DNA of 64,000 bases from Deltaproteobacteria bacterium YD0425bin51. Lineage in GTDB: Bacteria > Desulfobacterota > Desulfobacteria > Desulfobacterales > YD0425bin51. The notes beneath the pieces were generated by a model. That model was not told the origin of the DNA and searched no databases. It worked only from the letters and a program-made list of their open reading frames with translations. Below are positions 25,491 to 50,351 of the stretch, piece after piece (position 1 is the stretch's first letter; the number at the start of each line of letters is the position of its first letter). Both the position numbers and the translations under genes were made by a program. Where the stretch lies: the NCBI GenBank assembly GCA_002753225.1, contig PDZS01000013.1, forward strand, positions 20,167 to 84,166. Reading direction: 5' to 3'.

Positions 25491-26150
25491 ATGGATAACA
25501 TTTTCAAATCATTTTCCAGACGAGCTTTAATTGTCATTTTGCTTTTTATGATATTACTTTGCATAAGCTTTAATGCAGGTTTTTTCTTTTCTTTAACACC
25601 TAATATTTTAATAGGTCTCTCTACAATCGCTTCTATTGTTTTTACTTTACTATTATGGATGTCTATGCGTTCCATTCTGTCAGGCTTAATAAAAAAACAA
25701 AAGCCTATTAAATCTAAGGCAATTGACAAAGAGGAAAGCCTTATAGATAAAGAAAAACAGGAAAATATTGAAAAAAGAATATTTTTGCATCTCTTGTCTA
25801 TATTACAAAGAGAAGGGAGACTCATTGACTTTTTAGCTGAAGATTTATCTATGTATGAAGATGAGCAGATTGGAGCTGCTGTAAGAGATGTACATGAGAA
25901 ATGTAAAAAAATAATTGATAAATATGTGCCATCACAGCCAATTCTAAATCAAGATGAAGGAGATGAAATAACAGTTGAAAAAGGTTTTGATGCAGAACAG
26001 ATAAAGCTCATTGGAAATGTAACAGGAGAACCTCCATTTAAAGGAGTACTCCGTCATAAAGGATGGAGAGCTAAAAAATTGAATTTACCAACTTTATCTA
26101 ATATAAAAGATTCAACTATAATTGCACCTGCTGAAGTTGAGATTTTATAA
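25491..26150 (+). CDS. DUF2760-like membrane-anchored protein
   Basis: Two N-terminal hydrophobic helices, then LSILQREGRLIDFLAEDLSMYEDEQIGAAVRDVHEKC...PFKGVLRHKGWRA, which matches my memory of DUF2760. RBS AAGGAG at 25474. Confidence 0.6.
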   Translation: MDNIFKSFSRRALIVILLFMILLCISFNAGFFFSLTPNILIGLSTIASIVFTLLLWMSMRSILSGLIKKQKPIKSKAIDKEESLIDKEKQENIEKRIFLHLLSILQREGRLIDFLAEDLSMYEDEQIGAAVRDVHEKCKKIIDKYVPSQPILNQDEGDEITVEKGFDAEQIKLIGNVTGEPPFKGVLRHKGWRAKKLNLPTLSNIKDSTIIAPAEVEIL

Positions 26151-26174
26151 CCGCAAAATAAGGAGTAAATAAAA

Positions 26175-34140: not shown

Positions 34141-35781
34141 TTGAAATTCCTATTTATATGTATAACTATTCTGTATATTGGAATATTAGAAGCTTACTGC
34201 TCAGATATTGAACTTCCGCCTGTAATTGAAGGAAATAAGCAATTATCATCAATTCAGAAAATATTTATTAAGAAATTTCTATTAGTTGGGAATACAGTAT
34301 TTTCAGATAAACAACTAAGGCCTTTAATCCAATCATATGAAAACCGATTTATATCTCACGAAGAACTTCAAGATGTAAAAAATATTTTAACTCAATATTA
34401 TATTCAGCAAGGTTATATAAATTCAGGAGTGGTGATACCTGATCAAGAAGTAAAATATGATAAAATCAGACTAGAAATTACCGAAGGCAAAATAGATAGG
34501 ATTTATGTGAATGGGTTAAAATTACTACGTCCTAATTATGTTATAAATCGGATAAAATTATCTACAGATGATGGTAAATTACCATTAAATGTAAATAGAT
34601 TACAAGAACGTTTGCAGATAATAAAACAGGATCCTTTAATAAAGAATGTTAATGCAGAACTTAAGCGGGGTCTAAATCGTGGATTTGCTGATCTTTATGT
34701 CCAAGTAATTGAAAATAAACCTTATTCACTTCAAGTAAAATTCAATAATTACACTTCACCAGGAGTTTCTGCTAATACTGGAGTATTAGAAGCTAAACTT
34801 TTAAATGTTTCAGGATGGGGAGATTCTATTTCAACAGAACTTACAAAGACCAAAGGACTCGAGAGTTATTCCGGCGAATATATATTACCTTTTAACAGAT
34901 GGGGAACAACTTTACTTTTAGGTTTTGATAAAACTGTATCAGACATAGTTTCTAAGCCATTTAACGAGTTAGACATATATGGAATTTCTAGAAATTATTA
35001 TGGTTATGTAAGGCATCCTTTTTACAAAACTTTATCTACTGAATTTGCAATGGGTTTAAAGCTTGAAAAAAGATATAGTAAAACACATTTATTCAATAAA
35101 CCCTTTTCATTTTCTCCTGGTGTTGAAGATGGCGAAAGTAAAGTATCTGTTTTGAGATTCTGGCAAGAATGGGTTGATAGGAGCATGTCACAGGTAATTG
35201 CATTTCGTTCAACTTTTTCCTTTGGCTTGAATATATTAGACTCAACTCATCATATTAATGAGGCTTTAAATGGACCAGATGGGGAATTTATTGCTTGGTT
35301 ATCACAGTTTCAATGGGTCAGAATGCTTCCTAAATTAAACAGCCAGCTTCTGCTTAGTTTAAGCGGTCAGCTGTCCATTGATAAACTTTTACCTTTGGAA
35401 AAGTTTGCTATTGGAGGTTCCTCTACAGTTCGAGGATATCGTGAAAACTTTGTAACAGCAGACAATGGTTTCCTTGGTTCTCTGGAATGGCGAGTGCCAA
35501 TAACCCAGTGGATTATTCCTAATATAAGAAAAAATTCTGATAAATTTGATATCAAACTTGCAACATTCTTTGATTATGGGACAACTTGGAATACCATGAC
35601 AACTATTCGTCCAATTCCTGATAGCCTATGCAGCATAGGATTGGGACTTAGGTGCTTATTATTTAAAAAAGTTGAAGCAGATATAAATTGGGGTTATGGC
35701 TTAAGAGATATTGAAATTCCAACAGACAGTGATCTTCAGGATAAAGGGATACATTTTCAGATTAAAACAATGTTATTCTAA
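34141..35781 (+). CDS. ShlB/FhaC/HecB-family (TpsB, Omp85 superfamily) outer-membrane transporter
   Basis: Signal peptide, POTRA region (FLLVGNTVFSDKQLRPLI...YYIQQGYINSGVVIPDQEV..IRLEITEGKIDRIYVNG) and a C-terminal beta-barrel (..FAIGGSSTVRGY..). TTG start with RBS GGAGG. Confidence 0.8.
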   Translation: MKFLFICITILYIGILEAYCSDIELPPVIEGNKQLSSIQKIFIKKFLLVGNTVFSDKQLRPLIQSYENRFISHEELQDVKNILTQYYIQQGYINSGVVIPDQEVKYDKIRLEITEGKIDRIYVNGLKLLRPNYVINRIKLSTDDGKLPLNVNRLQERLQIIKQDPLIKNVNAELKRGLNRGFADLYVQVIENKPYSLQVKFNNYTSPGVSANTGVLEAKLLNVSGWGDSISTELTKTKGLESYSGEYILPFNRWGTTLLLGFDKTVSDIVSKPFNELDIYGISRNYYGYVRHPFYKTLSTEFAMGLKLEKRYSKTHLFNKPFSFSPGVEDGESKVSVLRFWQEWVDRSMSQVIAFRSTFSFGLNILDSTHHINEALNGPDGEFIAWLSQFQWVRMLPKLNSQLLLSLSGQLSIDKLLPLEKFAIGGSSTVRGYRENFVTADNGFLGSLEWRVPITQWIIPNIRKNSDKFDIKLATFFDYGTTWNTMTTIRPIPDSLCSIGLGLRCLLFKKVEADINWGYGLRDIEIPTDSDLQDKGIHFQIKTMLF

Positions 35782-35787
35782 CATATT

Positions 35788-35822
35788 CCACGATATTTAG
35801 CAGAATATTTTAAATATCGTGG
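35788..35822. other. Perfect 12-bp hairpin 1 in TpsB/mini-protein intergenic region
   Basis: CCACGATATTTA (35788-35799) and TAAATATCGTGG (35811-35822), with an 11-nt loop. Confidence 0.8.
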
Positions 35823-35826
35823 CAAA

Positions 35827-35880
35827 ATGGATTCTCGTTTTAGGTAGAATGAAGTCATTCCCTCGAAAACGAGAATCCAT
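35827..35880. other. Perfect 15-bp hairpin 2 with nested inner stem
   Basis: ATGGATTCTCGTTTT (35827-35841) and AAAACGAGAATCCAT (35866-35880). The loop contains GAATGA..TCATTC. Confidence 0.8.
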
Positions 35881-35911
35881 GGGAAATGGTATGAATATTG
35901 CTATGTGTCTC

Positions 35912-35954
35912 ATAATAGTTTGGTTGTTATTGAGGATAACAACCAAACTATTAT
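35912..35954. other. Perfect 19-bp hairpin 3, 31 nt upstream of the mini-protein start codon
   Basis: ATAATAGTTTGGTTGTTAT (35912-35930), loop TGAGG, ATAACAACCAAACTATTAT (35936-35954). Confidence 0.85.
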
Positions 35955-35985
35955 ATCAACCATAAAAATATAGGAGAAAAGATAA

Positions 35986-36207
35986 ATGAAAGTAAAATCA
36001 AATGTAAAATCAGGTTATGATATTCCAGCAGGTCCAATTTGGAACAATGGCGATGCACAGGGTAAATGTCCTAAAACATGCGCTCCATTTGGCGGATGGA
36101 ATGGAAATTGGTTGACCACTATTCCTGGTAGGATGTCTGTATGCGGATGCAATGTTAATCCAAATATTGTAGGATGTAAACCTGGTCCAGGGGCAATTTT
36201 AAGTTAA
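35986..36207 (+). CDS. 73-aa Cys-containing mini-protein with MVL (mannan-binding lectin)-like domain and short N-terminal MKVK..K.G motif
   Basis: RBS AGGAG at 35972. AGPIWNNGDAQGKCPKTCAPFGGWNGNWLTTIPGRMSVCGC resembles the bacterial 'mannan-binding protein/MVL' repeat (GPIW...KCP...W.GQW.T..PG.MSVC), recalled from memory. There is no Sec-type hydrophobic signal. Five Cys. Confidence 0.6.
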   Translation: MKVKSNVKSGYDIPAGPIWNNGDAQGKCPKTCAPFGGWNGNWLTTIPGRMSVCGCNVNPNIVGCKPGPGAILS

Positions 36208-36221
36208 GAATACTATTTACC

Positions 36222-36250
36222 ATGTGCCAACTTTAGAAAAGTTGGCACAT
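36222..36250. other. Perfect 13-bp hairpin just after the mini-protein gene
   Basis: ATGTGCCAACTTT - AGA - AAAGTTGGCACAT. No T-run follows, so it is not a canonical intrinsic terminator. It may be an mRNA processing or stabilising hairpin. Confidence 0.75.
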
Positions 36251-36265
36251 AAGGAAAAAATAATT

Positions 36266-36481
36266 ATGATAAAAACAAAAACTAGCTTAAAAGCAGGCAA
36301 AATTACTATATATGGCTCATCTTCATGTGGATGGTGCCAAAAACAGAAGAATTATTTAAACTCTAAAGGAATAGCCTATACTTTTATTGATTGCTCTACT
36401 AATTCATGCCCTGACTTCGTAAAAGCATTTCCAACTATAGATAATAACGGAATAATATCAGAAGGTTATCAAGAATTATAA
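36266..36481 (+). CDS. Glutaredoxin/NrdH-like thiol-disulfide oxidoreductase with 11-aa N-terminal extension
   Basis: I prefer ATG 36266 (MIKTKTSLKAGKITIYGSSSCGWCQKQKNYLNSKGIAYTFIDC...), because the track's upstream start lies within the hairpin. It has a CGWC active site in a Grx-like beta-alpha-beta context. The stop abuts the ABC gene start (TAAATG). Confidence 0.7.
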   Translation: MIKTKTSLKAGKITIYGSSSCGWCQKQKNYLNSKGIAYTFIDCSTNSCPDFVKAFPTIDNNGIISEGYQEL

Positions 36482-38629
36482 ATGCAGTTTTCTGAACTCT
36501 ATAATTATTCATGGCCTCCTTCAATGCTTGCTGAATCTATTGAAATTTTAGCTAAAAAGGCAAAATATATCTCAAAGCCTGTAGATATACCTCTGCAGTT
36601 TAAAAATATAGAAGCTACAGATAAGGAGACTTTAACTATTTGGATAAGAAAAATAGCTGAACATGTTGGAATAGAAGCTGAACCTGTTGAATTTTTATAT
36701 TCTGATATAGATGATATGTTGTATAAAGCAGCTCCAGCTTTGATTTATTTACCATTACAAGATGAGCAAAGATTTCTAATCTTTTTTAAAGGGGATAAAA
36801 ATAGACTTAAAATTATAACTCCTGAAAATAAAGTAAAGAGTATACCTACAGATTTTGTTTGCGATATTATAACTTATGAAATTGAAGCCCCTTTTCTTGA
36901 ATCTGCAGATAACTTACTCTTAAATGTCGGTGTACCTAAAGAAAGGTTGCATAAAAGCAAAAAATCAATTTTCAAAGAACAACTTGGTTCAAAAAGAATT
37001 CATAACTGCTGGATTTTGAGGCTTTCACCTGGTGGCAGCTTATGGACACAGATAGTTGGAGCAAAAATACCCAAAAATATATTTACAATTATAATGATGA
37101 ATATTATTGGACAAATATTGATGCTGCTTAGCTGGTTTATTATAGGTAAAGGAGCATTCAAAGGCAACTTTGATCCTATGTGGCTTTATGCTTTGACTTT
37201 GCTAATGTTTACTGCTATACCTTTTCAGCTTATTACTACTTGGGCAGGCTCTTTAATGTCAATTAGCGCTGGAGAAATTTTTAAAAAGCGCCTCCTTTTT
37301 GGTATTCTTAAATTAGAACCTGAAGAAATAAAAAATCAAGGTGCAGGACAATTTTTAGGAAGAGTTATGGAGTCTGAATCAGTAGAATCTTTGGCTCTAA
37401 CCGGAGGAATTGTTGCTATAATTTCTATTATTGACTTATTTACAGCAGTAACTGTAATCAAAATGGGTATTGGAGGATGGCTACATACATTTATACTTTT
37501 TGGATGGATAATAATTTCAATATTTTTATATATTCAATATTTTAGAAAAATAAATGATTGGATGAACCTATATCAAGAAATGACAAATGATATGGTAGAG
37601 CGTATGGTAGGACACCGAACAAGGCTTGCTCAGGAAGATGAAAAAGATTGGCACAATGAAGAAGATAAAATTTTATCTAAATATTTCCAATTATCAGAAG
37701 ATTTAGATAAAGTGAATATAAAAATTCATGGAATTGTTTCTCATGGATGGGGAATTGTAGGTTTTTTAGGAATAGCTTATTTAATAATTATTATTCCTCC
37801 TGCATCAAAGTCTTTAATGGCTGTAAGTATAGGAGGAATAATGCTTGCTTCGCAAGCTTTGACTAGTATAGTTGGAACAATGTCGAGTATTGTTAACATT
37901 ACAATTGCATGGAAACAGGTAGGGCCACTTTTTACTGCTGCAAATCGTAAAAAATATAAACCGTCTTCCTTTGTTATTTCAAACAATGATTTAAAAAAGA
38001 AAATAGATGAAGATGATGAGCCTGTTTTAGCTGCTTATGATATTAATTTCAATTATGGAAACTATGGTCGTTCAATAATAACTAATTGTAGTTTAAAGAT
38101 ATCAAAAGGAGATAGACTTTTACTTGAAGGACCATCAGGAGGAGGAAAGTCAACTTTATCTGCTCTTATTGCTGGTTTGAAGGAGCCTGTATCTGGTATT
38201 TTGCTTATGGGAGGTTTGGACAAACAGACAATGGGGATAGATGAATGGAGGAAAAGAATAGTTATTGCTCCTCAATTTCATGAAAATCATGTTTTAATGG
38301 AAACATTTGCATTTAATTTACTTATGGGAAGACGCTGGCCCCCCTCAAATGAGGATTTAGAGCATGCAGAAGAAATATGTCAGGAGCTAGGACTTGGAGA
38401 ACTTTTGCATAGAATGCCTGCTGGAATTCAACAGATGGTTGGAGAAAGTGGCTGGAGATTATCTCATGGTGAAAGGAGCCGTCTTTATATTGCTAGAGCG
38501 CTTCTTCAGGAAGCAGAGATAATTATTTTAGATGAGAGTTTTGCAGCTCTTGATCCTGAAAATCTTTATAGAGCAATGAATTGCGTTTTAAAGCGTGCTT
38601 CTACTCTACTAGTTATTGCGCATCCATAA
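36482..38629 (+). CDS. ABC exporter (N-terminal ~190-aa cytoplasmic domain - 6-TM permease - ATPase), no peptidase active site seen
   Basis: Walker A GPSGGGKST, signature LSHGERSRL, Walker B IIILDESFAALD. In the N-terminal domain (SWPPSMLAESIEILAKKAKYI...) I find no Q/C/H C39 triad. The architecture resembles the non-peptidase partner of two-subunit bacteriocin (NHLP-type) exporters. Confidence 0.85.
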   Translation: MQFSELYNYSWPPSMLAESIEILAKKAKYISKPVDIPLQFKNIEATDKETLTIWIRKIAEHVGIEAEPVEFLYSDIDDMLYKAAPALIYLPLQDEQRFLIFFKGDKNRLKIITPENKVKSIPTDFVCDIITYEIEAPFLESADNLLLNVGVPKERLHKSKKSIFKEQLGSKRIHNCWILRLSPGGSLWTQIVGAKIPKNIFTIIMMNIIGQILMLLSWFIIGKGAFKGNFDPMWLYALTLLMFTAIPFQLITTWAGSLMSISAGEIFKKRLLFGILKLEPEEIKNQGAGQFLGRVMESESVESLALTGGIVAIISIIDLFTAVTVIKMGIGGWLHTFILFGWIIISIFLYIQYFRKINDWMNLYQEMTNDMVERMVGHRTRLAQEDEKDWHNEEDKILSKYFQLSEDLDKVNIKIHGIVSHGWGIVGFLGIAYLIIIIPPASKSLMAVSIGGIMLASQALTSIVGTMSSIVNITIAWKQVGPLFTAANRKKYKPSSFVISNNDLKKKIDEDDEPVLAAYDINFNYGNYGRSIITNCSLKISKGDRLLLEGPSGGGKSTLSALIAGLKEPVSGILLMGGLDKQTMGIDEWRKRIVIAPQFHENHVLMETFAFNLLMGRRWPPSNEDLEHAEEICQELGLGELLHRMPAGIQQMVGESGWRLSHGERSRLYIARALLQEAEIIILDESFAALDPENLYRAMNCVLKRASTLLVIAHP

Positions 38630-38660
38630 ACATTAAACAAATAAGTAAAGGTTATTTATT

Positions 38661-38894
38661 ATGAATGTATTACCACTTAACTTAATTCTTTCATCTCCTT
38701 TTGAATTACAAGTTGTATATTTTGTATTAAGCTTTATCATTGCACTAATAGGAATAAATCGAAAAATGGGATTTTGGGGTTATCTTTTTTGCTCAATACT
38801 TTTTTCACCTCTAATTGGATTGATGGTAGTTATGGTATCAGCAAAGAATGTATCAGCAAAGAAAGAGGATAATAAAATTAAAAAGCAGGAATGA
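38661..38894 (+). CDS. Small 2-TM membrane protein
   Basis: 77 aa with two hydrophobic helices and a Lys-rich tail. It sits tightly between the ABC and SPFH genes. Confidence 0.4.
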   Translation: MNVLPLNLILSSPFELQVVYFVLSFIIALIGINRKMGFWGYLFCSILFSPLIGLMVVMVSAKNVSAKKEDNKIKKQE

Positions 38895-38897
38895 TAT

Positions 38898-39851
38898 ATG
38901 GCAGATGAATATGTAAAACGTATAGTACCATCATTTAAAAAAATAGAAGATTTTTGGCATAAGTTCGTAAGTACAGGTTTGGTCCCGACCATTATATTTT
39001 TAGTTATTTTTTTAATTTTATTTACAATTTTAGTAAAAAGTATTTTTTATACTATAGCTCCTGGACAAGCAGCTGTGAGATGGAGTCGTTTTCATGGAGG
39101 TACTCAAATAGATTACGTTTATCCAGAAGGTTGGAATTACATAACACCCTGGGATAAAATGTATATATATAACATAAGAATACAAGAAATTTCCCATGAG
39201 ATGAGCGTTTTGAGCAAAAACGGACTTAAAGTGGATCTTAATTTATCCATTAGATTTGCACCTAAATATAAATTGTTAGGACTTTTGCACCAGAAAATTG
39301 GGCCAGATTATGCAAATACAGTAATTATACCTGAAGTTGAAGCAGTATTACGTGAAATTATTGGCACTATGGAGGCAGAAAATATTTATACAACAGGAAG
39401 AGCATTAATAGTTGAAGCAATAAATAAAGCTATTGAGCAGGTTGCTCAGCGGTATATAGATATAGATAAGGTTTTAATAAAAAGTATTCAGCTTCCAGAT
39501 AGCGTTGAACAGGCAATTCGTTATAAAATAGAGCAGAAACATTTAATTGAAGCCACTGAATTTATTGTTGAGAAGGAAAAAAAGGAAGCAGATCGTAAAC
39601 GTGTCGAAGCAGCAGGTCTTAGAGATTACAATAAAATAGTTGAAGATTCGCTTTCAAAAAAAATAATGGACTGGAAAGCAATTCAAGCAACTATGGAGCT
39701 AGCTAAATCTAATAATTCAAAGGTTATTTTAGTAGGGGCAGGAGAAAGAGGGCTCCCAATTTTTGGTGGAATTCAAGTAGATGACTTGACTAAAGAAAGC
39801 TCAAAAGATAATGATAAAGATAATAATAAAAAAGAGATTATTAAAAAGTAG
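38898..39851 (+). CDS. SPFH/Band-7 (prohibitin/HflC-like) membrane protein
   Basis: N-terminal TM helix, then IAPGQAAVRWSRFHGGT...VLSKNGLKVDLNLSIRF...IIPEVEAVLREIIG and a coiled-coil C-terminus. Confidence 0.8.
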   Translation: MADEYVKRIVPSFKKIEDFWHKFVSTGLVPTIIFLVIFLILFTILVKSIFYTIAPGQAAVRWSRFHGGTQIDYVYPEGWNYITPWDKMYIYNIRIQEISHEMSVLSKNGLKVDLNLSIRFAPKYKLLGLLHQKIGPDYANTVIIPEVEAVLREIIGTMEAENIYTTGRALIVEAINKAIEQVAQRYIDIDKVLIKSIQLPDSVEQAIRYKIEQKHLIEATEFIVEKEKKEADRKRVEAAGLRDYNKIVEDSLSKKIMDWKAIQATMELAKSNNSKVILVGAGERGLPIFGGIQVDDLTKESSKDNDKDNNKKEIIKK

Positions 39852-42555: not shown

Positions 42556-44761
42556 AAAAATTTATGTAACTATTGCGTTAATTATTTTAGCATTATTAGG
42601 TTTAGTAATATATTTTTCATTTATTATAAAAAAAGATTATTACATTGCTGTTGCAGGTCCTATGAGTGGACAGCGTAAATATGATGGTGAAGCAATGTTA
42701 AAAGGGATTAATCTGTGTCTTGATGAGATAAACAAAAAGGGTGGAATTAATGGAAGAAAGATACTTGCTCGTATTTTTGATGATAAAGGACAAACAAGAA
42801 TAGCAATGAATATTGCTTCTCAAATTTCAGAAGATAAAGATATCTTACTAACTCTTGGGCACTTTGACAGCTCAACTTCATATTCTGCTGGAAGTATTTA
42901 TCGTAAAACAGGTGTACCTGCAATCACTGCATCTGCAACTGCTGTTGAAGTAACTCGCGAAAATGATTTTTATTTCAGGGTCATCACAAACAATGCTTTT
43001 GAAGGAAGCTTTATTGCTAATTACTTGAAAACATTAGGTAAACAATCAGCAACCATCATTTATAATAAAGATACCTATGGGACATCTCTTGTGGAAAGTT
43101 TTGAAAAAACGGCAAAAACAATTGGTATTGCTGTCAAAAAAAAATGGGGTTTTGACTCAGAAAGTGAAACAATAAATGAGGATATGTCTAAAATTATCAC
43201 TGAACTTAGAGCAATAAGTGATCCTGGTATGCTATTTTTGGCAGTTCATGGGAATGAAGCCCCTAAAATTATCAAATCATTAAAATTTTCAGGTGCTGAT
43301 TTTTCAATTTTTGGACCTGATAGTTTTGCAACTGTTTCATTTATTAGTGGATTCAAAGAATTTCCCGAGGAACAGACAAAACCAGGATACTATACAGATG
43401 GAATTTATTGTGCTTCTCCATTTATGGCAGAAATTGCAAATGAAAAAGCACAGAAATTTAGAAAATTATATATGCATAAATACTTAGAGGAGCCATTATG
43501 GACATCAGCCTGTTATTATGATGCAGCTCTTGTTGCAGTTGAAGCAATTAAATCTTCAGACATTGGAAATAGTGATCAAATTCGAAAATCGAGAAGAGAA
43601 ATCAGAAGTTCTCTTGCAAATATGTATAGGCAAGAAGATGCTTTAATAGGAGTCACTGGGCCAATATACTTTGATAAAAATGGAGATGTAAACCGTCCAA
43701 TGGCAGTAGGAAAATACAAAAAACAAATATTTATGCCAGCATACTTACAGTATCAATTAATTCCAGATCCTCCAGATAGTGAGGCAACCTTAAAAAAAGT
43801 TCTGAAAGGTGATATTTTTGTTATTGAAGGCAAAAATATGCATAAATACAAAGTAGTCTATACAGGTATTGATGTTAACGAGATTTTTAACCTGGATATT
43901 AAAAAATCTACTTACAGCATGGATTTTTATATTTGGTTCAGATTTGAAGGAGAATTGGATGATAAAGATATCAATTTTGTAAATGCGGCAAGTCCTATTG
44001 ATATAGGTAAACCTATTTTTGAAGAACAGAAAGATGGCATTACTTTGCGTGCATATCGTGTTAAAGGGAATTTTAAAGGTAATTTTGACTTTAGCTCATA
44101 TCCTTTTGACAAGCATAATTTAGAGATAAAATTTCATCATAAAAAAGATACTCGTGAACAGTTAATATATGTTGTTGATATTTTGGCACTTCCTGATTCA
44201 GTTTTAAAAGCAAAACATCATGAGATAGATTTTAAAAGCTCTATTGAGTGGAAAATTATAGATAAATTTTATTATCAAGATATTAAAACAGATAATTCAA
44301 CTCGTGGTAAGTTAGATTCTTTAAATGAACAGAATAAATATTCTTATTCCATGTTTAATCTTTCAATTTTAATAAAAAAGACTGGAATAGGTGAATTCTT
44401 AAGAAATATAATCCCTATGATTGTATTAATTTTGATTTTATATATTATCTATTTTATACCTAATGAAAAATGGTGGGTGCACTTAGTTATAATACTTACA
44501 GTACTTATCACAAACATATTCTACCATGTAAAACTATTAAATTATTTACCCATTAATTACACGAGTTGCATGGAATATTTATTTTTTTCTTTATATTTAC
44601 TTATAATTATGAAATTGCTGTTACTCTCAATTATATTTATTCATTTCAAAAAAAATAATATAAAAAGATTAAACTTAATTCAAAATGTAGGAAAAATATT
44701 GTTTCTGCCAGTTGCTTTTGGAATGATTTTAATAACCCTGTATTTAACAGGTCGCTTTTAG
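42533..44761 (+). CDS. Type-1 periplasmic binding domain fused to a pentameric ligand-gated ion channel (Cys-loop-superfamily-like) module
   Basis: N-terminal TM/signal anchor, then a LIVBP-like domain (IAVAGPMSGQRKYDGEAMLKGINLCLDEINKKGGINGRKILARIFDD..). A beta-sandwich ECD-like region follows (VVYTGIDVNEIFNLDIKKSTYSMDFYIWFRF ... FDFSSYPFDKHNLEIKF). It ends in four TM helices with pLGIC-like landmarks (NIIPMIVLILILYIIYFIP; LPINYTSCMEYLFF). Confidence 0.7.
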   Translation: MTGILKNKKIYVTIALIILALLGLVIYFSFIIKKDYYIAVAGPMSGQRKYDGEAMLKGINLCLDEINKKGGINGRKILARIFDDKGQTRIAMNIASQISEDKDILLTLGHFDSSTSYSAGSIYRKTGVPAITASATAVEVTRENDFYFRVITNNAFEGSFIANYLKTLGKQSATIIYNKDTYGTSLVESFEKTAKTIGIAVKKKWGFDSESETINEDMSKIITELRAISDPGMLFLAVHGNEAPKIIKSLKFSGADFSIFGPDSFATVSFISGFKEFPEEQTKPGYYTDGIYCASPFMAEIANEKAQKFRKLYMHKYLEEPLWTSACYYDAALVAVEAIKSSDIGNSDQIRKSRREIRSSLANMYRQEDALIGVTGPIYFDKNGDVNRPMAVGKYKKQIFMPAYLQYQLIPDPPDSEATLKKVLKGDIFVIEGKNMHKYKVVYTGIDVNEIFNLDIKKSTYSMDFYIWFRFEGELDDKDINFVNAASPIDIGKPIFEEQKDGITLRAYRVKGNFKGNFDFSSYPFDKHNLEIKFHHKKDTREQLIYVVDILALPDSVLKAKHHEIDFKSSIEWKIIDKFYYQDIKTDNSTRGKLDSLNEQNKYSYSMFNLSILIKKTGIGEFLRNIIPMIVLILILYIIYFIPNEKWWVHLVIILTVLITNIFYHVKLLNYLPINYTSCMEYLFFSLYLLIIMKLLLLSIIFIHFKKNNIKRLNLIQNVGKILFLPVAFGMILITLYLTGRF

Positions 44762-44805
44762 CTATATCAACTATCAACTATTAATTATTAAAAAAGGAGA
44801 AAAAG

Positions 44806-45327
44806 ATGGAACAAGAAAAAACAAACGAGGAAGTAAAAGTTGAAACCCAGGAACTAAAAGAAGTGTCTCAAGAACAAATTGATAAACTTATCAGAAATAA
44901 TGTTTTGGTTTCAATGGGATTTGGGCTAATTCCCATCCCACTTGTTGATTTTGCTGCTATTACAGGTGTTCAGCTTAACATGATAAGAATACTTGCAAAA
45001 ATGTACGAAGTTCCATTTTCTAAAGACAAAGGTAAACATATTATCGCATCACTTATTGGTGGTACTATTCCTGCATCTTTTGGTGGAATTTTAACGAGTT
45101 TAGTCAAAGTTGTACCAATTATTGGACAAACAACAGGCGCATTGGTTATGCCAGTACTTGCAGGTGGAACAACTTATGCGATAGGTAAAGTTATGGTACA
45201 ACATTTTGCATCTGGTGGGACATTCCTAAATTTTAATCCTGAACAAGTAAAAGAATATTATGCTGATATGCTTTCAAAAGGTAAAGAAGTTGCTAGTAAA
45301 ATCAAATCTGGTGCTATGACACAATAA
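44806..45327 (+). CDS. DUF697 (YcjF-like) membrane-associated protein
   Basis: GLIPIPLVDFAAITGVQLNMIRILAKMYEVPFSK...GTTYAIGKVMVQHF is the typical DUF697 pattern. Confidence 0.65.
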   Translation: MEQEKTNEEVKVETQELKEVSQEQIDKLIRNNVLVSMGFGLIPIPLVDFAAITGVQLNMIRILAKMYEVPFSKDKGKHIIASLIGGTIPASFGGILTSLVKVVPIIGQTTGALVMPVLAGGTTYAIGKVMVQHFASGGTFLNFNPEQVKEYYADMLSKGKEVASKIKSGAMTQ

Positions 45328-45337
45328 GGAGAATCCT

Positions 45338-46834
45338 ATGAAAAAATTTGCATTGAAACTATTTTGTATTTTTATAATTATTACTTTTATGGGTTGTGCG
45401 ACCGGCGTTGATCCTAAAAACGACAAACAGCTCAATGCTTTGTTTCAGGCTCTTGTCAAAAATAAGAAAGAGCTTGCCAAAAAGAAGGCAGAACAAGACA
45501 AAATGTTAGAAAAAGGGTTAACATTTGAAAAGAAAGACTCAGGAATTGAATTTAGCGCAGATCTATATAATGCACCAATCCCTGATATCTTTAAGAAAAT
45601 AATGGAAGCATCTCATGAATCATATATTTTAGAAGATGATGCTGTCCTTACAGGAAAGGTTACTACACGTTTTCAAAAGCTTAGCTTTATTAATGCTTTA
45701 AATATGATAATCTCACCTATTGATTTAGTGGCTGTAAAGGAAAAAGATTTTGTTAAGGTTAGCCTTAAATATAAAGGTGAAGTTGCTGGAGCAGCTGCAA
45801 CTGCAGCAGGAGCTGCAGGTCCAGCAGGAGCTATGCCAGTTGGTCCTCCAGGTGTTTATGCAGAATTGGCTTTTAATAATTTAGATGTTGCTTCTGTTCA
45901 AACATTGCTTGAAACACTTTATCCTGCAACTTCTCCTACACCAAGACCTATTGAATATGGGGTCATACCTGCATCAAATACAGTTTATATTCATGGCGAT
46001 AAAAGCAATGTTGTAAGAACCATCCAAATATTAAGACAAGCAGATCGCAAGGTTAAACATGTTGTTATTGAAGTTTTGGTAGTTGAATATAAAACAGGGG
46101 ATTTAATGGATCTGCAGAGTAAAATCACAAATATGAAGACTGGTTATTTAAAAGATATTAATCTTGGTTTTAACGCAATAGGTTTTACACAACCAGGAAG
46201 GAATATTGGAGAAGATAAAATCAGAAACTTCACTGAGTTTACAGCGCTTGTTAATTTTTTAATTGAAGATAACAAAGCAAGACTTATTTCCAGACCTTAT
46301 ATAGCTACAAGAAGCGGTAAAAAAGCTCAAATTGAAATTGCTACAGAAGGTTATCTTGAGATCGCAACAGCTCAGGGTGGTAGTCAAGCTCAATCTGTTA
46401 AATCTGGTGTTATTTTGAATATTTTACCTATAGTGTTGGATACAGGCAAGTTAAACATGGAAATCCAAGTTGAAGATTCTCAATTTTCAAAGATACCTGA
46501 AAATACGAAAATGCAGCTTTCAGTAAACAAAAACTCAGCTCAAACATTTATGCAGGTTGATGATGGTCAGACAATAATCATAGGTGGTTTGGTATTGAAT
46601 CGTGGAGAATGGGGAAATTCTGGATTTCCATTCTTGAGAAAGATACCAATTATAAATCTTCTTGCTGCAAACCAAAAAAGTTCAATTACAGAAAAGGAAG
46701 TTGCAATATATATAACTCCTCATGTTTGGGAGCCTGACATTGTATCTCCTCTTATAGATCCTGATGCTCTTACAGATAAAGGTTCTAAGAAAGGTATCAG
46801 TGATATTGGCTCTTTTATTAATAAATTAAAATAG
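45338..46834 (+). CDS. Secretin-family outer-membrane channel lipoprotein
   Basis: Lipobox FMGC. There is an Ala/Gly/Pro-rich linker (GAAATAAGAAGPAGAMPVGPPG). The C-terminal secretin domain reads ARLISRPYIATRSGKKAQIEI...GVILNILPIV...DDGQTIIIGGL...GFPFLRKIPIINLL...EVAIYITPHV. Confidence 0.8.
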   Translation: MKKFALKLFCIFIIITFMGCATGVDPKNDKQLNALFQALVKNKKELAKKKAEQDKMLEKGLTFEKKDSGIEFSADLYNAPIPDIFKKIMEASHESYILEDDAVLTGKVTTRFQKLSFINALNMIISPIDLVAVKEKDFVKVSLKYKGEVAGAAATAAGAAGPAGAMPVGPPGVYAELAFNNLDVASVQTLLETLYPATSPTPRPIEYGVIPASNTVYIHGDKSNVVRTIQILRQADRKVKHVVIEVLVVEYKTGDLMDLQSKITNMKTGYLKDINLGFNAIGFTQPGRNIGEDKIRNFTEFTALVNFLIEDNKARLISRPYIATRSGKKAQIEIATEGYLEIATAQGGSQAQSVKSGVILNILPIVLDTGKLNMEIQVEDSQFSKIPENTKMQLSVNKNSAQTFMQVDDGQTIIIGGLVLNRGEWGNSGFPFLRKIPIINLLAANQKSSITEKEVAIYITPHVWEPDIVSPLIDPDALTDKGSKKGISDIGSFINKLK

Positions 46835-46856
46835 ATAATTTTATAGGGAGGTTAGT

Positions 46857-47393
46857 TTGGCAAGTCCATTTGTTCGAACAATGCGTTCGTTTCATGCGGA
46901 TAGCTATTATGCATCATTCATAGGGATTCTGATAAGTATGTTTTTTATGACTCTATGGTTTATATGGTTCTTTACAGCCAATGTGTCAATTTACAAAAAA
47001 AGCACTTATGCTGTACTTACCTCCCAAGAAGGAATTAAAACTGATTTTCCATCTAGTCCTTTTGGTATTGTAAATACAATGGAAGAAAAGAGGGGGAAAG
47101 TTGTTATATCTGAATTTCCGATTGACGCTAAAGATATAATTAAAAGAGGACAAAACGCTAGTTTTATAGTTGAAGATGCTGTAACTCATAAAAGGAGAAA
47201 AGTACCTGCTATTGTAACAAAGCTAGCTAGTCAATTCCCACAAAAAAAAATAGCAGTAGAGTTAATAGCTTTTATGGATAAAAAAATATTCAAAGAAATT
47301 AAAGCTGGTACTACAGGTCAAGTTAATATTGAAGTTAATAGAGAAACTCCAGCAAAAATGGTAATGAGAATGTCAGGATTATTTATTAATTAA
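46857..47393 (+). CDS. 178-aa mini HlyD/membrane-fusion-like protein (TM anchor + beta-barrel-like end, no coiled-coil hairpin)
   Basis: The N-terminus (FVRTMRSFHADSYYASFIGILISMFFMTLWFIWFF) resembles the cytoplasmic tail/TM anchor of bacteriocin-exporter MFPs. The C-terminus (GTTGQVNIEVNRETPAKMVMRMSGLF) resembles the terminal beta strands of HlyD-family proteins. It is less than half the usual length. TTG start with RBS GGGAGG. Confidence 0.45.
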   Translation: MASPFVRTMRSFHADSYYASFIGILISMFFMTLWFIWFFTANVSIYKKSTYAVLTSQEGIKTDFPSSPFGIVNTMEEKRGKVVISEFPIDAKDIIKRGQNASFIVEDAVTHKRRKVPAIVTKLASQFPQKKIAVELIAFMDKKIFKEIKAGTTGQVNIEVNRETPAKMVMRMSGLFIN

Positions 47394-47490
47394 TTAAAAT
47401 ATGGCCGACAAATTGCATATTTTATTTTAGAGTCTGAGCTCAAAGTTTAGACAATCTTTTTAACATAAAACAAAAAGGAGAATAAATACA

Positions 47491-47550
47491 ATGAAAGTTA
47501 AAACAAAAGTTAAAGCAGGCGGTTTTAATTCAATGATTCAAGGCATGTAA
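47491..47550 (+). CDS. 19-codon micro-ORF MKVKTKVKAGGFNSMIQGM (candidate Gly-Gly-type precursor or leader peptide)
   Basis: Not in the ORF track because it is below the length cutoff. AAGGAG at 47475-47480 lies 10 nt before the ATG. The ORF sits 78 nt upstream of a C39-peptidase ABC exporter. Its N-terminus repeats the MKVK..K.G motif of the ORFs at 35986 and 36266. A strong hairpin plus T-run follows. Confidence 0.5.
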   Translation: MKVKTKVKAGGFNSMIQGM

Positions 47551-47570
47551 AAAAACAAAAGAAGTAGCTT

Positions 47571-47619
47571 TACCCGTGATATTTAATAACTCTGCAAAAT
47601 ATCACGGGTAATTTTTTTT
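47571..47619 (+). terminator. Rho-independent terminator/attenuator between micro-ORF and C39-ABC gene
   Basis: TACCCGTGATAT (47571-47582) pairs with ATATCACGGGTA (47599-47610), followed by ATTTTTTTT (47611-47619). The ABC start codon is at 47628. Confidence 0.65.
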
Positions 47620-47627
47620 AAACTGTT

Positions 47628-50351
47628 ATGTTATTTGATACTATTCCAAAAAGAAAATTTTTAGTACCTGAAGTTATTCAGACATCTGCAATGGATTGTG
47701 GTCCTGCCACATTAAAAGCTATGCTTGAGGGATTTGACATTTCTGCAAGTTATGGACGCCTTAGAGAAGCTTGCCAAACAGATGTTGATGGAACCAGCAT
47801 TGATAGTATTGAAGATGTTGCTGTTCAATTAGGACTTGAAGCCCAGCAGACCATGCTCCCTCTTGATAATTTGCTTTTGCCGGTAAGTGCAGCATTACCA
47901 GCTATTGTAGTAACTCGTCTTCCAAATGGATTTACACATTTTGTTATTGTCTGGTCTGTTCACGGTTCTTTTGTTCAAATCATGGATCCTGGCACAGGAA
48001 GGCGTTGGTTGACTAAAAAGAACTTTTTAAAAGATGTTTATATTCACAGACAGACTGTTTCTGTTGAAGATTGGCATAATTGGGCAAAGTCAGATGGATT
48101 TTTAAAGCCTCTATGTGTAAGAATGGAAAATCTGAAAATAGGAGGCTTCATTATTGATGAACTGATTGAAACAGCAAAAAATGGAGAAAGATGGCAAACA
48201 CTTGCAGCATTAGATGCTTCAGTAAGAATGGTTGATTCAATCGTAAATTCAGGTGGATTTAGGAAAGGCTCTGAAGCCTCAAAAGCTTTGCAGCAAATAT
48301 TTACAAATGAAATAACTATGCAGCATGATCAGGAAAGCATGGTTCCTATAAATTACTGGTCCATAGAACCATCACCAAATGAAAATGAAAGCGATCAGGT
48401 AATTTTAAAAGGTGCTGTAACTATAACCGTTAGCGGCAAAAGAGAAGTTAAAGATTCAAAAGAAATATCTAATGAGGAACAGATAAAACCCTTATCTCCT
48501 GAATTAGTTGCAGCATTAGAAGAGGAGTCTGTTAAACCTGAAAAGGAACTTATAAAAGCTTTTTTAGAGGATGGATGGCTTGTCATTGTCATGCTTATTT
48601 CTGGGCTTGCTTTAGCTACATTTGCAGTAACTGTTGAAGCTATTTTATTTAGAGGTTTATTAGAAATTACATCAAACTTCCAATTAATTGGACAAAAAGT
48701 TTCTGCAATGGGATTACTTATAGCTTTTTTATGTGCTGTTGTTGCTCTTTCTTTGCCTATGGAATCAATAAAATACCGCATTGGAAGGCGGATTGAAACC
48801 CGCCTTAGGATAGCTTTTTTAGAAAAGATCCCCCGCCTTGGAGATAAGTATTTTCATAGCCGTCTTACATCAGATATGACTCATAGGGCCTATGAACTAC
48901 GTCAATTAAGAATGTACCCCAATTTAGCAGTTATGTTTATACGAGTATGTTTTGAAATTTTAATTACAACTATTTGTATTATTTGGATCACACCATCAAG
49001 CGCTCATATTGCTATTATTGCAACTCTTGTTGTAATTGGTGTTTCTTTGATGGCACAGCCTCTACTGAACGAGCAAAGCCTTCGTCTTCAAACATTAATT
49101 GGAGCAATAAGCAGATTTTATCTAGACTCATTACTAGGAATAGTGCCAATTAGAACTCACAGGGCAGAATTATCTGTTAGAAGGGAACATGAAGGTTTAA
49201 TGGTAGAATGGGCAAGAGCAGGTATTTCTCTATACAAAGCTGATTTATTAATTATTGGAATAGAAGCTTTAGTGGGTGCTTTTTTTACAGTATGGATTCT
49301 ATACCATTTTGTGTCAAATTACAGTGATCCAAAAGGCATATTATTATTAATGTACTGGACAATGAAATTACCTCAACTTGGAAAGGTTTTGGCCTCTCTT
49401 GCCCAGCAATATCCAATGATGCGCAATATGCTACTTAGACTTTTAGAGCCTTTAACTTCAAGTGAAGAAAGTGCAATGTATAAAGAAGATAAAGATGACG
49501 AACCTTATGATTACACTCAAATTATTTCAGAAGAAGGTATATCTCTATATCTTCAAGATGTTAATGTGCAAGCCGGCGGACAGACTATTTTAAAAGAAAT
49601 AAATTTAACAATTAATTCAAATGAGCATGTAGCTATTGTTGGTCCATCTGGTGCTGGAAAATCAAGCTTTGTTGGATTATTTCTTGGTTGGCATAGACCT
49701 AATGAAGGTAAAATATTTATTGATGGAAAACGGTTGAATGGTTCCATGTTAAATAAAATTCGTAGTCAAACATCGTGGGTAGATCCAGAAGTTCAACTTT
49801 GGAATAAGACTCTTATAGAAAATCTACGTTATGGCTCTCAAGATATTGAAACATCAAATTTAAGTCAAGTTATAGAGCTTGCTGATTTATTAAATATGTT
49901 GGAAAAATTCCCAAATGGACTTCAAACTGTTCTAGGAGAAGGTGGGGGATTAGTTTCAGGAGGAGAAGGTCAAAGAGTTAGGCTTGGAAGAGCAATGCTT
50001 AGAGATAAAATAAGACTTGTCATAATGGATGAACCATTTCGTGGTCTTGATCGGTCAACTCGAAGAGAGCTTTTAAAAAAAGCTAGAGCCTTCTGGAAAA
50101 AATCAACATTGATTTTTATTTCCCACGATGTAAGTGAAACTCTTTTATTTGACAGAGTATTAGTAATAGAAAATGGACAAATAGTTGAAGATAATACGCC
50201 AAAAATTTTATCAGAAAAAAAAGATTCTCGTTATAGTATGCTTTTAAAAGCTGATGAAGCTGTTAGAAATACTTTATGGGCCAGCGCTGAATGGAGAAGA
50301 TTATGGCTCAAAGATGGAAAACTCGATGAAAATGAAAATAATAATGATTAA
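47628..50351 (+). CDS. Peptidase-C39-containing ABC exporter (PCAT), 907 aa
   Basis: C39 domain with an intact triad context (VIQTSAMDCGPATLKAML ... FTHFVIVW ... IMDPGTG). Then a ~170-aa extra region, a 6-TM permease and an ATPase (GPSGAGKSS, VSGGEGQRVRL, LVIMDEPFRGLD). Confidence 0.9.
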   Translation: MLFDTIPKRKFLVPEVIQTSAMDCGPATLKAMLEGFDISASYGRLREACQTDVDGTSIDSIEDVAVQLGLEAQQTMLPLDNLLLPVSAALPAIVVTRLPNGFTHFVIVWSVHGSFVQIMDPGTGRRWLTKKNFLKDVYIHRQTVSVEDWHNWAKSDGFLKPLCVRMENLKIGGFIIDELIETAKNGERWQTLAALDASVRMVDSIVNSGGFRKGSEASKALQQIFTNEITMQHDQESMVPINYWSIEPSPNENESDQVILKGAVTITVSGKREVKDSKEISNEEQIKPLSPELVAALEEESVKPEKELIKAFLEDGWLVIVMLISGLALATFAVTVEAILFRGLLEITSNFQLIGQKVSAMGLLIAFLCAVVALSLPMESIKYRIGRRIETRLRIAFLEKIPRLGDKYFHSRLTSDMTHRAYELRQLRMYPNLAVMFIRVCFEILITTICIIWITPSSAHIAIIATLVVIGVSLMAQPLLNEQSLRLQTLIGAISRFYLDSLLGIVPIRTHRAELSVRREHEGLMVEWARAGISLYKADLLIIGIEALVGAFFTVWILYHFVSNYSDPKGILLLMYWTMKLPQLGKVLASLAQQYPMMRNMLLRLLEPLTSSEESAMYKEDKDDEPYDYTQIISEEGISLYLQDVNVQAGGQTILKEINLTINSNEHVAIVGPSGAGKSSFVGLFLGWHRPNEGKIFIDGKRLNGSMLNKIRSQTSWVDPEVQLWNKTLIENLRYGSQDIETSNLSQVIELADLLNMLEKFPNGLQTVLGEGGGLVSGGEGQRVRLGRAMLRDKIRLVIMDEPFRGLDRSTRRELLKKARAFWKKSTLIFISHDVSETLLFDRVLVIENGQIVEDNTPKILSEKKDSRYSMLLKADEAVRNTLWASAEWRRLWLKDGKLDENENNND

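Follow-up and report, generated by a model that had tools for sequence, protein, structure and literature searches.

A candidate export locus for leader-tagged mini-proteins in a Desulfobacterales genome, with an asymmetric ABC exporter pair, a shortened HlyD-type adaptor and a lipoprotein secretin

We analysed a 64,000-nucleotide stretch of contig PDZS01000013.1 from Deltaproteobacteria bacterium YD0425bin51 (the window; all positions are counted within it, and its GC content is ~32%), in which 13 co-directional genes fill ~16 kb of the forward strand at 34141-50351. Its sequence is best read as that of a dedicated export system for ribosomally made peptides and mini-proteins. We lean towards a model in which an ATP-binding cassette (ABC) exporter cleaves an N-terminal tag and moves the cargo over the inner membrane, and a lipoprotein secretin would be the outer-membrane exit, mainly for folded mini-proteins. 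An earlier prediction made from this DNA alone (hereafter the original prediction) had given a count of 14 open reading frames (ORFs) on one strand; we count 13 genes, the number that its own list contains, and the Pfam and NCBIfam profile searches confirm most of the predicted domains of this co-directional cluster. The genes that carry the argument are as follows, all on the forward strand.

35986-36207, forward: MVL-lectin-like mini-protein, 73 aa, with 5 Cys and no Sec signal (Pfam MVL 1.9e-14)
36266-36481, forward: glutaredoxin (Grx)-like CGWC protein, 71 aa from an internal ATG (Pfam Glutaredoxin 2.7e-7)
36482-38629, forward: second ABC half-transporter (CLD-ABC, with a C39-like domain), 715 aa (ABC_tran)
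44806-45327, forward: DUF697 membrane protein, 173 aa, directly upstream of the secretin gene (Pfam DUF697 3.5e-12)
45338-46834, forward: lipoprotein secretin, 498 aa (Pfam Secretin 7.1e-31)
46857-47393, forward: HlyD-family membrane fusion protein of reduced size (mini-MFP), 178 aa, with the N-terminal transmembrane (TM) helix and the C-terminal beta-barrel kept
47491-47550, forward: micro-ORF of 19 codons, MKVKTKVKAG/GFNSMIQGM, with a GGAG motif 10 nt before the ATG
47628-50351, forward: C39-peptidase ABC exporter (C39-ABC), 907 aa (Pfam Peptidase_C39 3e-20, with ABC_membrane and ABC_tran)

Leader-tagged products, exporter pair and adaptor

The products of the micro-ORF, the MVL-like gene and the Grx-like gene begin with a common tag, MK(V/I)KTx(V/I)K(A/S)G, and the pattern K.K.{2,4}K[AS]G. 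has three matches in the six-frame translation of the 64 kb, all of them at the N-termini of small ORFs of the locus. The 73-residue protein, which the original prediction had likened to MVL lectins, indeed contains one MVL repeat (PF12151, residues 21-55, 53.8 bits vs a cutoff of 25). Its leader MKVKSNVKSG is encoded at 35986-36015, with a ribosome-binding site (AGGAG) 9 nt upstream of the start; the predicted mature form has 63 aa, and the ortholog in the related locus L011/L012 carries the leader MKAKTGTTAG. The Grx-like protein has the CGWC motif and matches Pfam Glutaredoxin with its N-terminal half only (31.1 vs 22.9 bits), and every NCBIfam Grx model stays below its cutoff. Its gene most likely starts at ATG 36266 instead of the start of the longer ORF first proposed: this ATG exposes the leader MIKTKTSLKAG, the NCBI annotation likewise has 71 aa, and leader-bearing orthologs occur in the unrelated metagenome contig L002 (MFRIKTQIRSG, 48% identity) and in L116 (..AKTGLRAG). 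The leader of the micro-ORF, MKVKTKVKAG, is found identical in L138, and homologs of the micro-ORF that adjoin secretins of the same family have the cores NLMNQMLQG, SLMNELLDKKASE, TIMDSLLKKELAG, TAMDDLIKKFSKKKG and SIDQMIQDAMKKATN. The window micro-ORF thus appears, on comparative grounds, to be a genuine precursor peptide with the leader of the exporter clade.

A metagenome scan with the C39 domain returned at least 548 confirmed relatives with 62-71% identity, from which we sampled the wider exporter clade through 80 loci. A strict regular expression for the leader matched 36 ORFs in 20 of these 80 loci (638 kb) and 12 times in ~133 kb of module loci, against 7 matches in 1.2 Mb of ordinary secretin neighbourhoods used as a control. 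Precursors in the exporter loci include MKVKTNVKAG followed by IIAI, NIVWGS, VPPDPC (four copies), GKPKGLAMN (three copies) or YQWIKASFD. The cores of precursors neighbouring the clade are 4-25 residues long, and in multi-core precursors of exporter loci ..GLKVKTxVKAG.. is repeated between the cores. In secretin-linked loci and in exporter loci, beside the C39-ABC genes, the conserved end of the leader is [AS]-G; the next residue varies and a second Gly is not conserved, which corrects the Gly-Gly ending given for the N-terminal motif in the original prediction, and cleavage itself is predicted. Because ORFs matching the strict expression recur in exporter loci, including L095, where the leader occurs alongside a full-length MFP and an OEP/TolC gene, we assign the tag to the exporter clade, with cores that would begin right after [AS]G. 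The small ORFs were rightly taken to be leader-bearing, and the leader that they share is tied to the pair of C39-ABC and second ABC genes.

Two other interpretations of the tag were rejected. A nucleotide-level element does not fit, as the peptide is conserved while the codons vary synonymously. A type IV prepilin-like signal was discarded since the cores are too short and non-hydrophobic and Glu5 is not conserved, and it is further disfavoured by the absence of a prepilin peptidase or pilus ATPase. Eight leader-bearing small proteins matched no Pfam or NCBIfam family, and the leader strings were found nowhere in the searchable literature, whose reach excludes figure-only sequences and most subscription papers. 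Multi-core precursors from soil and sediment metagenomes (L107, L119, L152, L164 and L173) alternate ..GLKV(K/R)TxVKAG.. with cores containing a conserved motif, NHN(E/Q)T, for example MTIRTNVKAG-MLASNHNETLVHKG-LKVRTSVKAG-MLASNHNETLVR, and look like a distinct peptide family with several processing sites.

The 907-aa C39-ABC, called as a C39-peptidase exporter in the original prediction and confirmed as such by Pfam (ABC_membrane 1.9e-7 and ABC_tran 2.3e-22 beside the peptidase match), retains the catalytic Cys, His and Asp, and MDCGP, THFV and MDP are invariant in its orthologs. Its nucleotide-binding domain (NBD) is canonical, with Walker A, VSGGEGQR, Walker B DE and the H-loop; the MDCGP Cys motif and VSGGEGQR are kept in 15 of 15 orthologs. 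Between its C39 domain and its first TM helix, the protein has ~170 additional residues (~150-320), which are partly conserved (LSPELAAALEE) and are lacking in canonical peptidase-containing ABC transporters (PCATs).

The 715-aa half-transporter had been described as an ABC exporter without a peptidase, a description that needs revision: a degenerate C39-like domain (CLD) without the catalytic Cys occupies ~residues 1-190, with W-P-x-S at the position of that Cys, and is followed by the TM domain and the NBD. A sequence search of the PDB with this N-terminal domain was negative, and its alignment to the C39 profile (hhalign) was weak, E 0.0019, and colinear. The C39-like fold was settled by structure prediction and Foldseek: the AlphaFold2 (AF2) model of residues 1-199 has a pLDDT of 86, and its top PDB matches are PCAT1 PEP 7n87 (E 2e-4), ComA 3k8u, LahT 6mpz and the C39-like 3b79. 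The ABC signature LSHGERS is non-canonical and the NBD ends at the H-loop (..IAHP-stop). Both LSHGE(R/Q)S and the truncated NBD are kept in all 14 CLD-ABC orthologs, so that one ATP site of the presumed heterodimer would be degenerate. Such a conserved asymmetry is as would be expected for an obligate heterodimer, and the two-subunit exporter of peptidase and non-peptidase chains that had been predicted is borne out by these two sets of orthologs. The order MFP, C39-ABC, CLD-ABC recurs among the 80 exporter loci.

An exhaustive search of a representative library of 1.84 billion proteins found 372 relatives of the mini-MFP, mostly of 150-200 aa. Relatives of ~390 aa, which NCBIfam places in HlyD, EmrA or NHLM_micro_HlyD, match at residues 1-55 and 282-384 only, and the hidden Markov model of the mini-MFP matches both ends of the 393-aa coiled-coil MFP of L095. 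Because these ~390-aa relatives match at both ends, the protein that the original prediction called a HlyD-like stub can be read as a HlyD-type adaptor minus its lipoyl and alpha-hairpin region; relative to full-length relatives, ~225 residues are missing, namely the lipoyl domain and the alpha-hairpin that forms the TolC-docking part. The mini-MFP has no Pfam HlyD match, and a word-indexed homolog search returned only the protein itself. The MFPs of the clade come in two sizes: those of ~390 aa contain a coiled coil, and those of 120-260 aa do not. The adaptors in the 80 exporter loci comprise 31 mini and 23 full-length forms. All four exporter loci that also carry a secretin of the family have a mini-MFP, and L095 combines its full-length MFP with the adjacent OEP/TolC gene. 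In locus L094, from a Chloroflexota metagenome-assembled genome (MAG), Band_7 accompanies a mini-MFP and the ABC pair, and outer-membrane genes are absent from the locus. The neighbours of 13 long mini-MFP loci are pentapeptide-repeat and Band_7 proteins, with no Secretin, OEP or ShlB among them. As mini-MFP loci without a secretin are common, L094 included, the mini-MFP would seem to predate the secretin or to be independent of it.

Pentapeptide-repeat proteins recur beside mini-MFP exporters with Band_7 (L094:18737-19723 and 4 further ORFs), and in one of these loci there is a gene for a LanM-type lanthipeptide synthetase (DUF4135 and LANC_like) as well. The closest relative of the window locus is L097, in the sister MAG GCA_015228675.1, where the mini-MFP is 60% identical and the C39-ABC gene starts 8 nt after it. 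In L095, a 611-aa protein without a Pfam domain (L095:14036-15871, reverse strand) is encoded beside the exporter and a tagged 29-aa precursor, MKIKTNIRAG followed by LVRVGGGRRGGGPVKPVLA; a homolog lies between the MFP and C39-ABC genes of L172 (L172:224-1612), and proteins of this type may be peptide-modifying enzymes.

A private secretin family and its conserved neighbourhood

The secretin comprises a lipobox, a long helix, two periplasmic N-domains split by an Ala/Gly/Pro linker, and the secretin core. Its AF2 model has two beta-alpha-beta-beta-alpha N-domains and the core, and Foldseek relates it to InvG, PilQ and GspD (E ~1e-16). It scores far below every NCBIfam equivalog cutoff for secretins, those for GspD, PilQ, SctC and MshL included (86/351, 96/284, 87/238 and 67/250 bits). 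The family is small, with 23 clusters at E <= 1e-10 among 5.8 billion proteins, ~480 aa in length and 35-47% identical; a conserved GC lipobox and the motif KARLISRP are its hallmarks. A scan of genome contigs with the secretin alignment found only L013 (Ca. Parabeggiatoa) and L014 (Methylomirabilota) as family members, a scan that was swamped by generic secretins via [DN]G[QE]TI[IV][IV]GG and sampled the taxonomic range poorly. No genes of type II secretion systems (T2SS), type IV pili (T4P), type III secretion systems (T3SS), Tad systems or phages adjoin the secretin gene in the window or the related loci (nine loci); the sole nearby pilus-type gene encodes a pseudopilin (T2SSG), 6 kb from the secretin gene of L004. 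The original prediction had named grouping of the secretin with an ordinary T2SS or T4P as an outcome that would refute it, and this check came out in its favour. By its fold the protein is a true secretin, and it is part of no known secretin machine.

In seven of nine loci (the window, L002, L004, L005, L008, L011 and L092), the family secretin has a tag-bearing micro-ORF after it. DUF697 lies upstream of this secretin in L002, L005, L006, L008-10 and L092/93, and is found beside the mini-MFP and C39-ABC genes in L106. One of the two DUF697 paralogs by the secretin is fused to an N-terminal receiver domain (L002:7089-7886 and L092:17459-18295), which hints at phosphorylation-controlled gating or assembly. 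A divergent family secretin, P0020, stands between two fragments of gidB (16S rRNA methyltransferase) at L007:301-3247, as if inserted, with a 1441-aa TPS-domain protein encoded 2 kb away on the other strand.

Ten window genes have orthologs in contig L002, where their order is changed and identities range over 32-57%: CLD-ABC (50%), the Grx-like protein, DUF697 (57%), the secretin (44%), the mini-MFP (32%) and C39-ABC (50%), together with four accessory proteins described below, namely the small membrane protein with two TM segments (2-TM, 52%), the SPFH protein (56%), the PBP1-SBP5 lipoprotein (55%) and the PBP1-pLGIC fusion (44%). A PAS kinase and a sigma-54 regulator are inserted among them. 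Subsets of the window genes recur in at least five further loci. In L011/L012, the secretin, a micro-ORF, a tagged HAD-like protein and a tagged MVL protein are encoded on one strand, and C39-ABC, mini-MFP and CLD-ABC on the opposite strand. In L092/L093, the mini-MFP and C39-ABC genes have the secretin and two DUF697 genes as neighbours, together with six small ORFs that carry the tag. L005 has TpsB (46%), DUF697 (68%), the secretin and a micro-ORF, and L008-L010 have DUF697, the secretin and a micro-ORF. The secretin of L004 is apparently alone, yet a tagged micro-ORF comes directly after it. Only the most divergent branch (P0020/L007 and L013) is without these neighbours. In four loci, the secretin, the exporter trio and the cargo stay together through the shuffling of gene order. 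Because ten genes recur shuffled in L002 and subsets recur in the further loci, the cluster is not a chance juxtaposition, which answers the neighbourhood-conservation check proposed with the original prediction.

Accessory genes, non-coding stretches and flanks

The remaining genes and the hairpins of the locus are listed below. PBP1 denotes a periplasmic binding protein domain and pLGIC a pentameric ligand-gated ion channel.

34141-35781, forward: TpsB/Omp85-type transporter, 546 aa, with a signal peptide (ShlB 1.6e-24, POTRA_2 2.4e-15)
35788-35822, 35827-35880 and 35912-35954, forward: three strong hairpins in the 204-nt gap 5' of the MVL-like gene
38661-38894, forward: small membrane protein, 77 aa, with 2 TM segments and no family match
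38898-39851, forward: SPFH/Band_7 membrane protein, 317 aa (Pfam Band_7 2e-24)
39811-42555, forward: PBP1-SBP5 lipoprotein, 914 aa (Peripla_BP_6 4.3e-41, OppA-like SBP_bac_5 2.5e-80)
42533-44761, forward: PBP1-pLGIC fusion, 742 aa (Peripla_BP_6 6.2e-37)
47432-47452, forward: terminator-like hairpin, 9-bp stem followed by a T-run, 3' of the mini-MFP gene (consensus scan)
47570-47611, forward: 15-bp hairpin and T8 run, separating the micro-ORF from the C39-ABC gene

The 77-aa protein has its ortholog likewise before the SPFH gene in L002/L003, and Band_7 proteins are found beside the exporter in the Chloroflexota locus L094 and in two of the 13 long mini-MFP loci. The PBP1-SBP5 protein shows the lipobox LIVGC in its sequence, and its orthologs are in L002 and L103. 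The C-terminal 332 aa of the PBP1-pLGIC fusion match ELIC at 6e-7 (phmmer, residues 70-326) and an ELIC/GABA-A chimera at 1.6e-9. Pfam misses this half (Neur_chan_LBD 16.5 vs 26 bits); the pLGIC call is right, as the ELIC matches span the extracellular and transmembrane domains. Orthologs of the fusion occur in L002, L103 and L160, and both PBP1 proteins co-occur in the window, L002 and L103. The 2-TM, SPFH, PBP1-SBP5 and PBP1-pLGIC genes appear to form a conserved accessory cassette, which lies within the module in the window and in L002 and is found again in L103. Peptide sensing by the OppA-like and pLGIC genes is plausible because of the OppA-like domain, and remains a speculative and unlikely role. 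The SPFH, PBP1-SBP5, DUF697 and secretin assignments of the original prediction were each reproduced by Pfam, and its PBP1::pLGIC channel by the Peripla_BP_6 and ELIC matches together.

The TpsB protein can be called an orphan in the window, as it had been before, because no ORF of at least 1000 aa that might be a TpsA partner lies within the 64 kb; the annotated genes of the contig segment contain no TPS domain. Only 2 loci include TpsB. Its ortholog in L005 lies 2.5 kb upstream of the DUF697-secretin pair, and the genes inserted between them (L005:6847-9100) encode a DNA methyltransferase together with a GIY-YIG nuclease, a pair resembling a restriction-modification system.

The gaps of the locus, in gene order, are 204, 58, 0, 31, 3, -41, -23, 44, 10, 22, 97 and 77 nt, and two long non-coding stretches stand out, at 35782-35985 and at 47394-47627, the second with the micro-ORF inside it. 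The hairpins at 35788-35954 have RNA fold z-scores of -8.75 and -6.05, and the hairpin at 47570-47611 (-21 kcal/mol) has z = -4.64, with equally stable shuffles in 0 of 200 in each case, in keeping with the strong hairpins reported near very small ORFs in the two larger gaps. The latter hairpin would be an intrinsic terminator or an attenuator. Dispersed repeats were ruled out as an explanation of the hairpins, the arm sequences being unique within the window.

The upstream flank encodes an Hsp70-like trio, DUF6160, a response regulator and PGI, and the downstream flank a hybrid kinase, a response regulator with GGDEF domain (RR-GGDEF), an Hpt protein and PEP synthase; these flanking genes are housekeeping or signalling genes unrelated to the locus. 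The trio, at 25491-30747, comprises DUF2760, an Hsp70-like protein (597 aa) and an Hsp70-like protein with DUF3731 (929 aa), and is apparently unrelated to the locus. The hybrid histidine kinase (REC-HisKA-HATPase-REC-Hpt, 50348-52462, reverse strand) is convergent with the C39-ABC gene, with a 4-nt overlap of their ends, and is followed by the RR-GGDEF and Hpt genes. A role as local regulator is possible for this kinase, which is not conserved in the related loci.

Proposed export route, alternatives and known systems

In the model that we favour, the two half-transporters would form an asymmetric heterodimer whose C39-like and C39 domains bind the tag. The C39 domain would cut after [AS]-G, releasing GFNSMIQGM, the 63-aa lectin-like protein and a 60-aa thiol-disulfide oxidoreductase; in the tagged peptide MKVKTKVKAGGFNSMIQGM the predicted cut falls after KAG (giving GFNSMIQGM) or after KAGG (giving FNSMIQGM). 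ATP hydrolysis would drive the cargo across the inner membrane, and release to the periplasm is probable because the adaptor is without the TolC-docking alpha-hairpin. There the co-exported Grx-like protein could aid the folding of Cys-rich cargo, which would then exit via the lipoprotein secretin, with DUF697 as an inner-membrane or regulatory partner. The SPFH, 2-TM, PBP1-SBP5 and PBP1-pLGIC proteins may serve as a scaffold for the exporter or as sensors of the exported peptide. Cargo size speaks for a link with the secretin: tagged ORFs of at least 40 aa make up 11 of 21 in secretin-linked loci and 5 of 32 elsewhere (Fisher p = 0.006), and the large cargo of secretin-linked loci includes MVL-like, Grx-like, HAD-like and Cys-rich proteins. 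A more complete version, an ABC-powered and secretin-gated pathway across two membranes that works without a pilus or pseudopilus and is coupled to peptide sensing by the OppA-like lipoprotein and the PBP-gated channel, we hold as a tentative and rather doubtful proposal. As to the envelope-spanning system of the original prediction, synteny and motif support its conserved neighbourhood, leader, exporter pair and private secretin family; its Gly-Gly motif, its ABC exporter without a peptidase domain and the Grx start did not stand, and passage of cargo through the secretin, a part for TpsB and the receptor roles are conjectural.

Several observations weigh against this model. No secretin lies within 10 kb in any of the 80 wider exporter-clade loci, the 13 long mini-MFP loci included, so the mini-MFP does not require the family secretin; conversely, the secretin loci L004, L005, L007 and L008 have no exporter within 10 kb. 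The P0020/L013 branch of the secretin family is without the micro-ORF, and L097 has neither a micro-ORF nor hairpins between its mini-MFP and C39-ABC genes, from which the insertion of the micro-ORF at its window position would be lineage-specific. C39 substrates canonically have Gly at -2, a rule that the predicted [AS]-G cut does not follow. As a rule, secretins work with a piston or filament, and the locus encodes neither. The AF2 model of the secretin is only moderately confident (pLDDT 62.5), the Fisher test of cargo size uses non-independent ORFs, all sequences come from MAGs or metagenomes, and the evidence is comparative.

Some of these points are shared by an explanation that we consider improbable, in which the exporter and its tagged cargo are real and the secretin is not their conduit: peptides would reach the periplasm only, short ones leaving by porins, and the secretin with DUF697 would be a separate machine with the tagged micro-peptide as its pilot, plug or regulatory peptide. 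Indeed, the secretin is linked most tightly to the micro-ORF and not to the exporter, most exporter-clade loci are without a nearby secretin, the occasional receiver domain on DUF697 suggests regulation, and micro-ORF cores of 4 residues (AVKK, AMRK) are odd as secreted products. However, it is precisely in the secretin-linked loci that 50-125-aa Cys-rich or folded cargo, to which porins are closed, is enriched; the secretin, exporter trio and cargo genes are co-kept in the four shuffled loci; and the neighbouring genes (no pilins, ATPase or phage genes among them) offer the secretin no other client. A second alternative replaces the periplasmic stop by a one-step tunnel similar to a type I secretion system, with a hexameric ring of mini-MFP on the N-domain rings of the secretin, in place of TolC, and unfolded cargo passing through. 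In the window the mini-MFP gene comes 22 nt after the secretin gene (elsewhere it adjoins the exporter), loss of the hairpin coincides with a secretin in four loci while a full-length-MFP locus has an OEP gene, and, judging from the predicted layout, the two N-domains and long helix of the secretin could reach the inner-membrane complex. We give this tunnel little probability, as mini-MFPs are common without a nearby secretin and the Chloroflexota MAG locus is without an outer-membrane component; moreover, the tagged Grx-like oxidoreductase and Cys-rich cargo better fit a periplasmic folding stop, and the lumen of a secretin is far wider than an unfolded chain needs.

Juxtaposition by chance or in a genomic island would make the locus a set of unrelated units: an ABC exporter of the bacteriocin type, orphan TpsB and T2SS/T4P-type secretin genes, and nutrient-binding proteins plus an ion channel. 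This reading is very improbable and is largely refuted by synteny. It could draw on the terminator-like hairpins, which divide the locus into several transcription units, on the co-occurrence of TpsB in two loci only, and on the presence of the PBP/pLGIC cassette in only three or four loci. Against it stand the ten orthologs that L002 keeps together in altered order, a leader confined, within the window, to this locus and common to cargo genes at both of its ends, leader-bearing micro-ORFs that specifically follow the secretin family, and flanking genes that are unrelated.

To our knowledge, secretins have so far been tied to pilus-like or injectisome machines and filamentous phage, and diderm ABC peptide exporters to TolC. 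A conserved coupling of secretin and ABC exporter, if true, would be a new route across the outer membrane, and how a secretin opens for a client without a piston would become a testable question. We found no prior description of a secretin with a PCAT, or of a secretin with DUF697, in the searchable literature, outside which most subscription papers lie. Soil and sediment metagenomes contain a large family of very short precursors that can be recognised by the tag MK(V/I)KTx(V/I)K(A/S)G and for which no curated model exists; searches with the tag could bring up candidate signals or antimicrobials, and the tag itself might serve biotechnology as a compact secretion signal. The OppA-like and pLGIC fusions of the locus point to a candidate route by which bacteria may signal from peptide to ion channel.

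Among known systems, the NHLP/Nif11 cassette consists of a HlyD-like protein (TIGR03794), an ABC protein with peptidase (TIGR03796) and an ABC protein without peptidase (TIGR03797) (Haft et al. 2010, PMC2887384). The locus resembles it in the three-gene set of adaptor, C39-ABC and second ABC without active peptidase, and in adjoining multiple precursors whose leaders end in small residues. However, the NHLP equivalog cutoffs are missed, with 189 bits for the 907-aa C39-ABC (TIGR03796, cutoff 853), 115 bits for the 715-aa CLD-ABC (TIGR03797, cutoff 709) and no match of the mini-MFP to the adaptor TIGR03794. The leader of the locus type has ~10 residues (MKVKTNVKAG) instead of an NHLP/Nif11 domain of ~60-80 residues, and the locus has a hairpin-less adaptor with secretin and DUF697 attached.

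In the case of microcin V and other class II microcins, the PCAT CvaB cuts an N-terminal leader and exports small unmodified peptides or proteins in a diderm. That system uses a homodimeric PCAT, a full-length MFP (CvaA), TolC and a double-glycine leader of 15-20 residues, whereas the locus has a presumed heterodimer with one dead peptidase domain, a mini-MFP, a secretin and no OEP. The CLD of HlyB, in RTX type I secretion, is a C39 fold without catalytic Cys that is thought to bind substrate without cutting it; it is present on both subunits and serves a C-terminal signal, while the locus pairs a CLD subunit with an active C39 subunit and has an N-terminal signal.

By Pfam and Foldseek, the secretin shares the architecture of Secretin core and N-domains with GspD, PilQ, InvG and pIV. 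Unlike them, it is a lipoprotein with two N-domains only, from a private family of ~23 clusters, and its constant neighbours are DUF697 and a leader-bearing micro-ORF in place of adjoining pilin, GspE/PilB, T3SS or phage genes. For a secretin partnered with an inner-membrane ATPase that belongs to no pilus, phage pIV sets a precedent. The TpsB protein has the POTRA_2 and ShlB barrel domains of FhaC and ShlB and differs from them in having no TPS-domain partner within the 64-kb window. Fusions of periplasmic binding proteins to pLGICs have been noted in prokaryotic surveys; the channel of the locus is like relatives of ELIC and GLIC in its extracellular and four-helix TM domains, which are homologous to ELIC, and carries an N-terminal PBP1. 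Unlike other pLGICs, it sits in a peptide-export locus, beside a PBP1-OppA-like lipoprotein.

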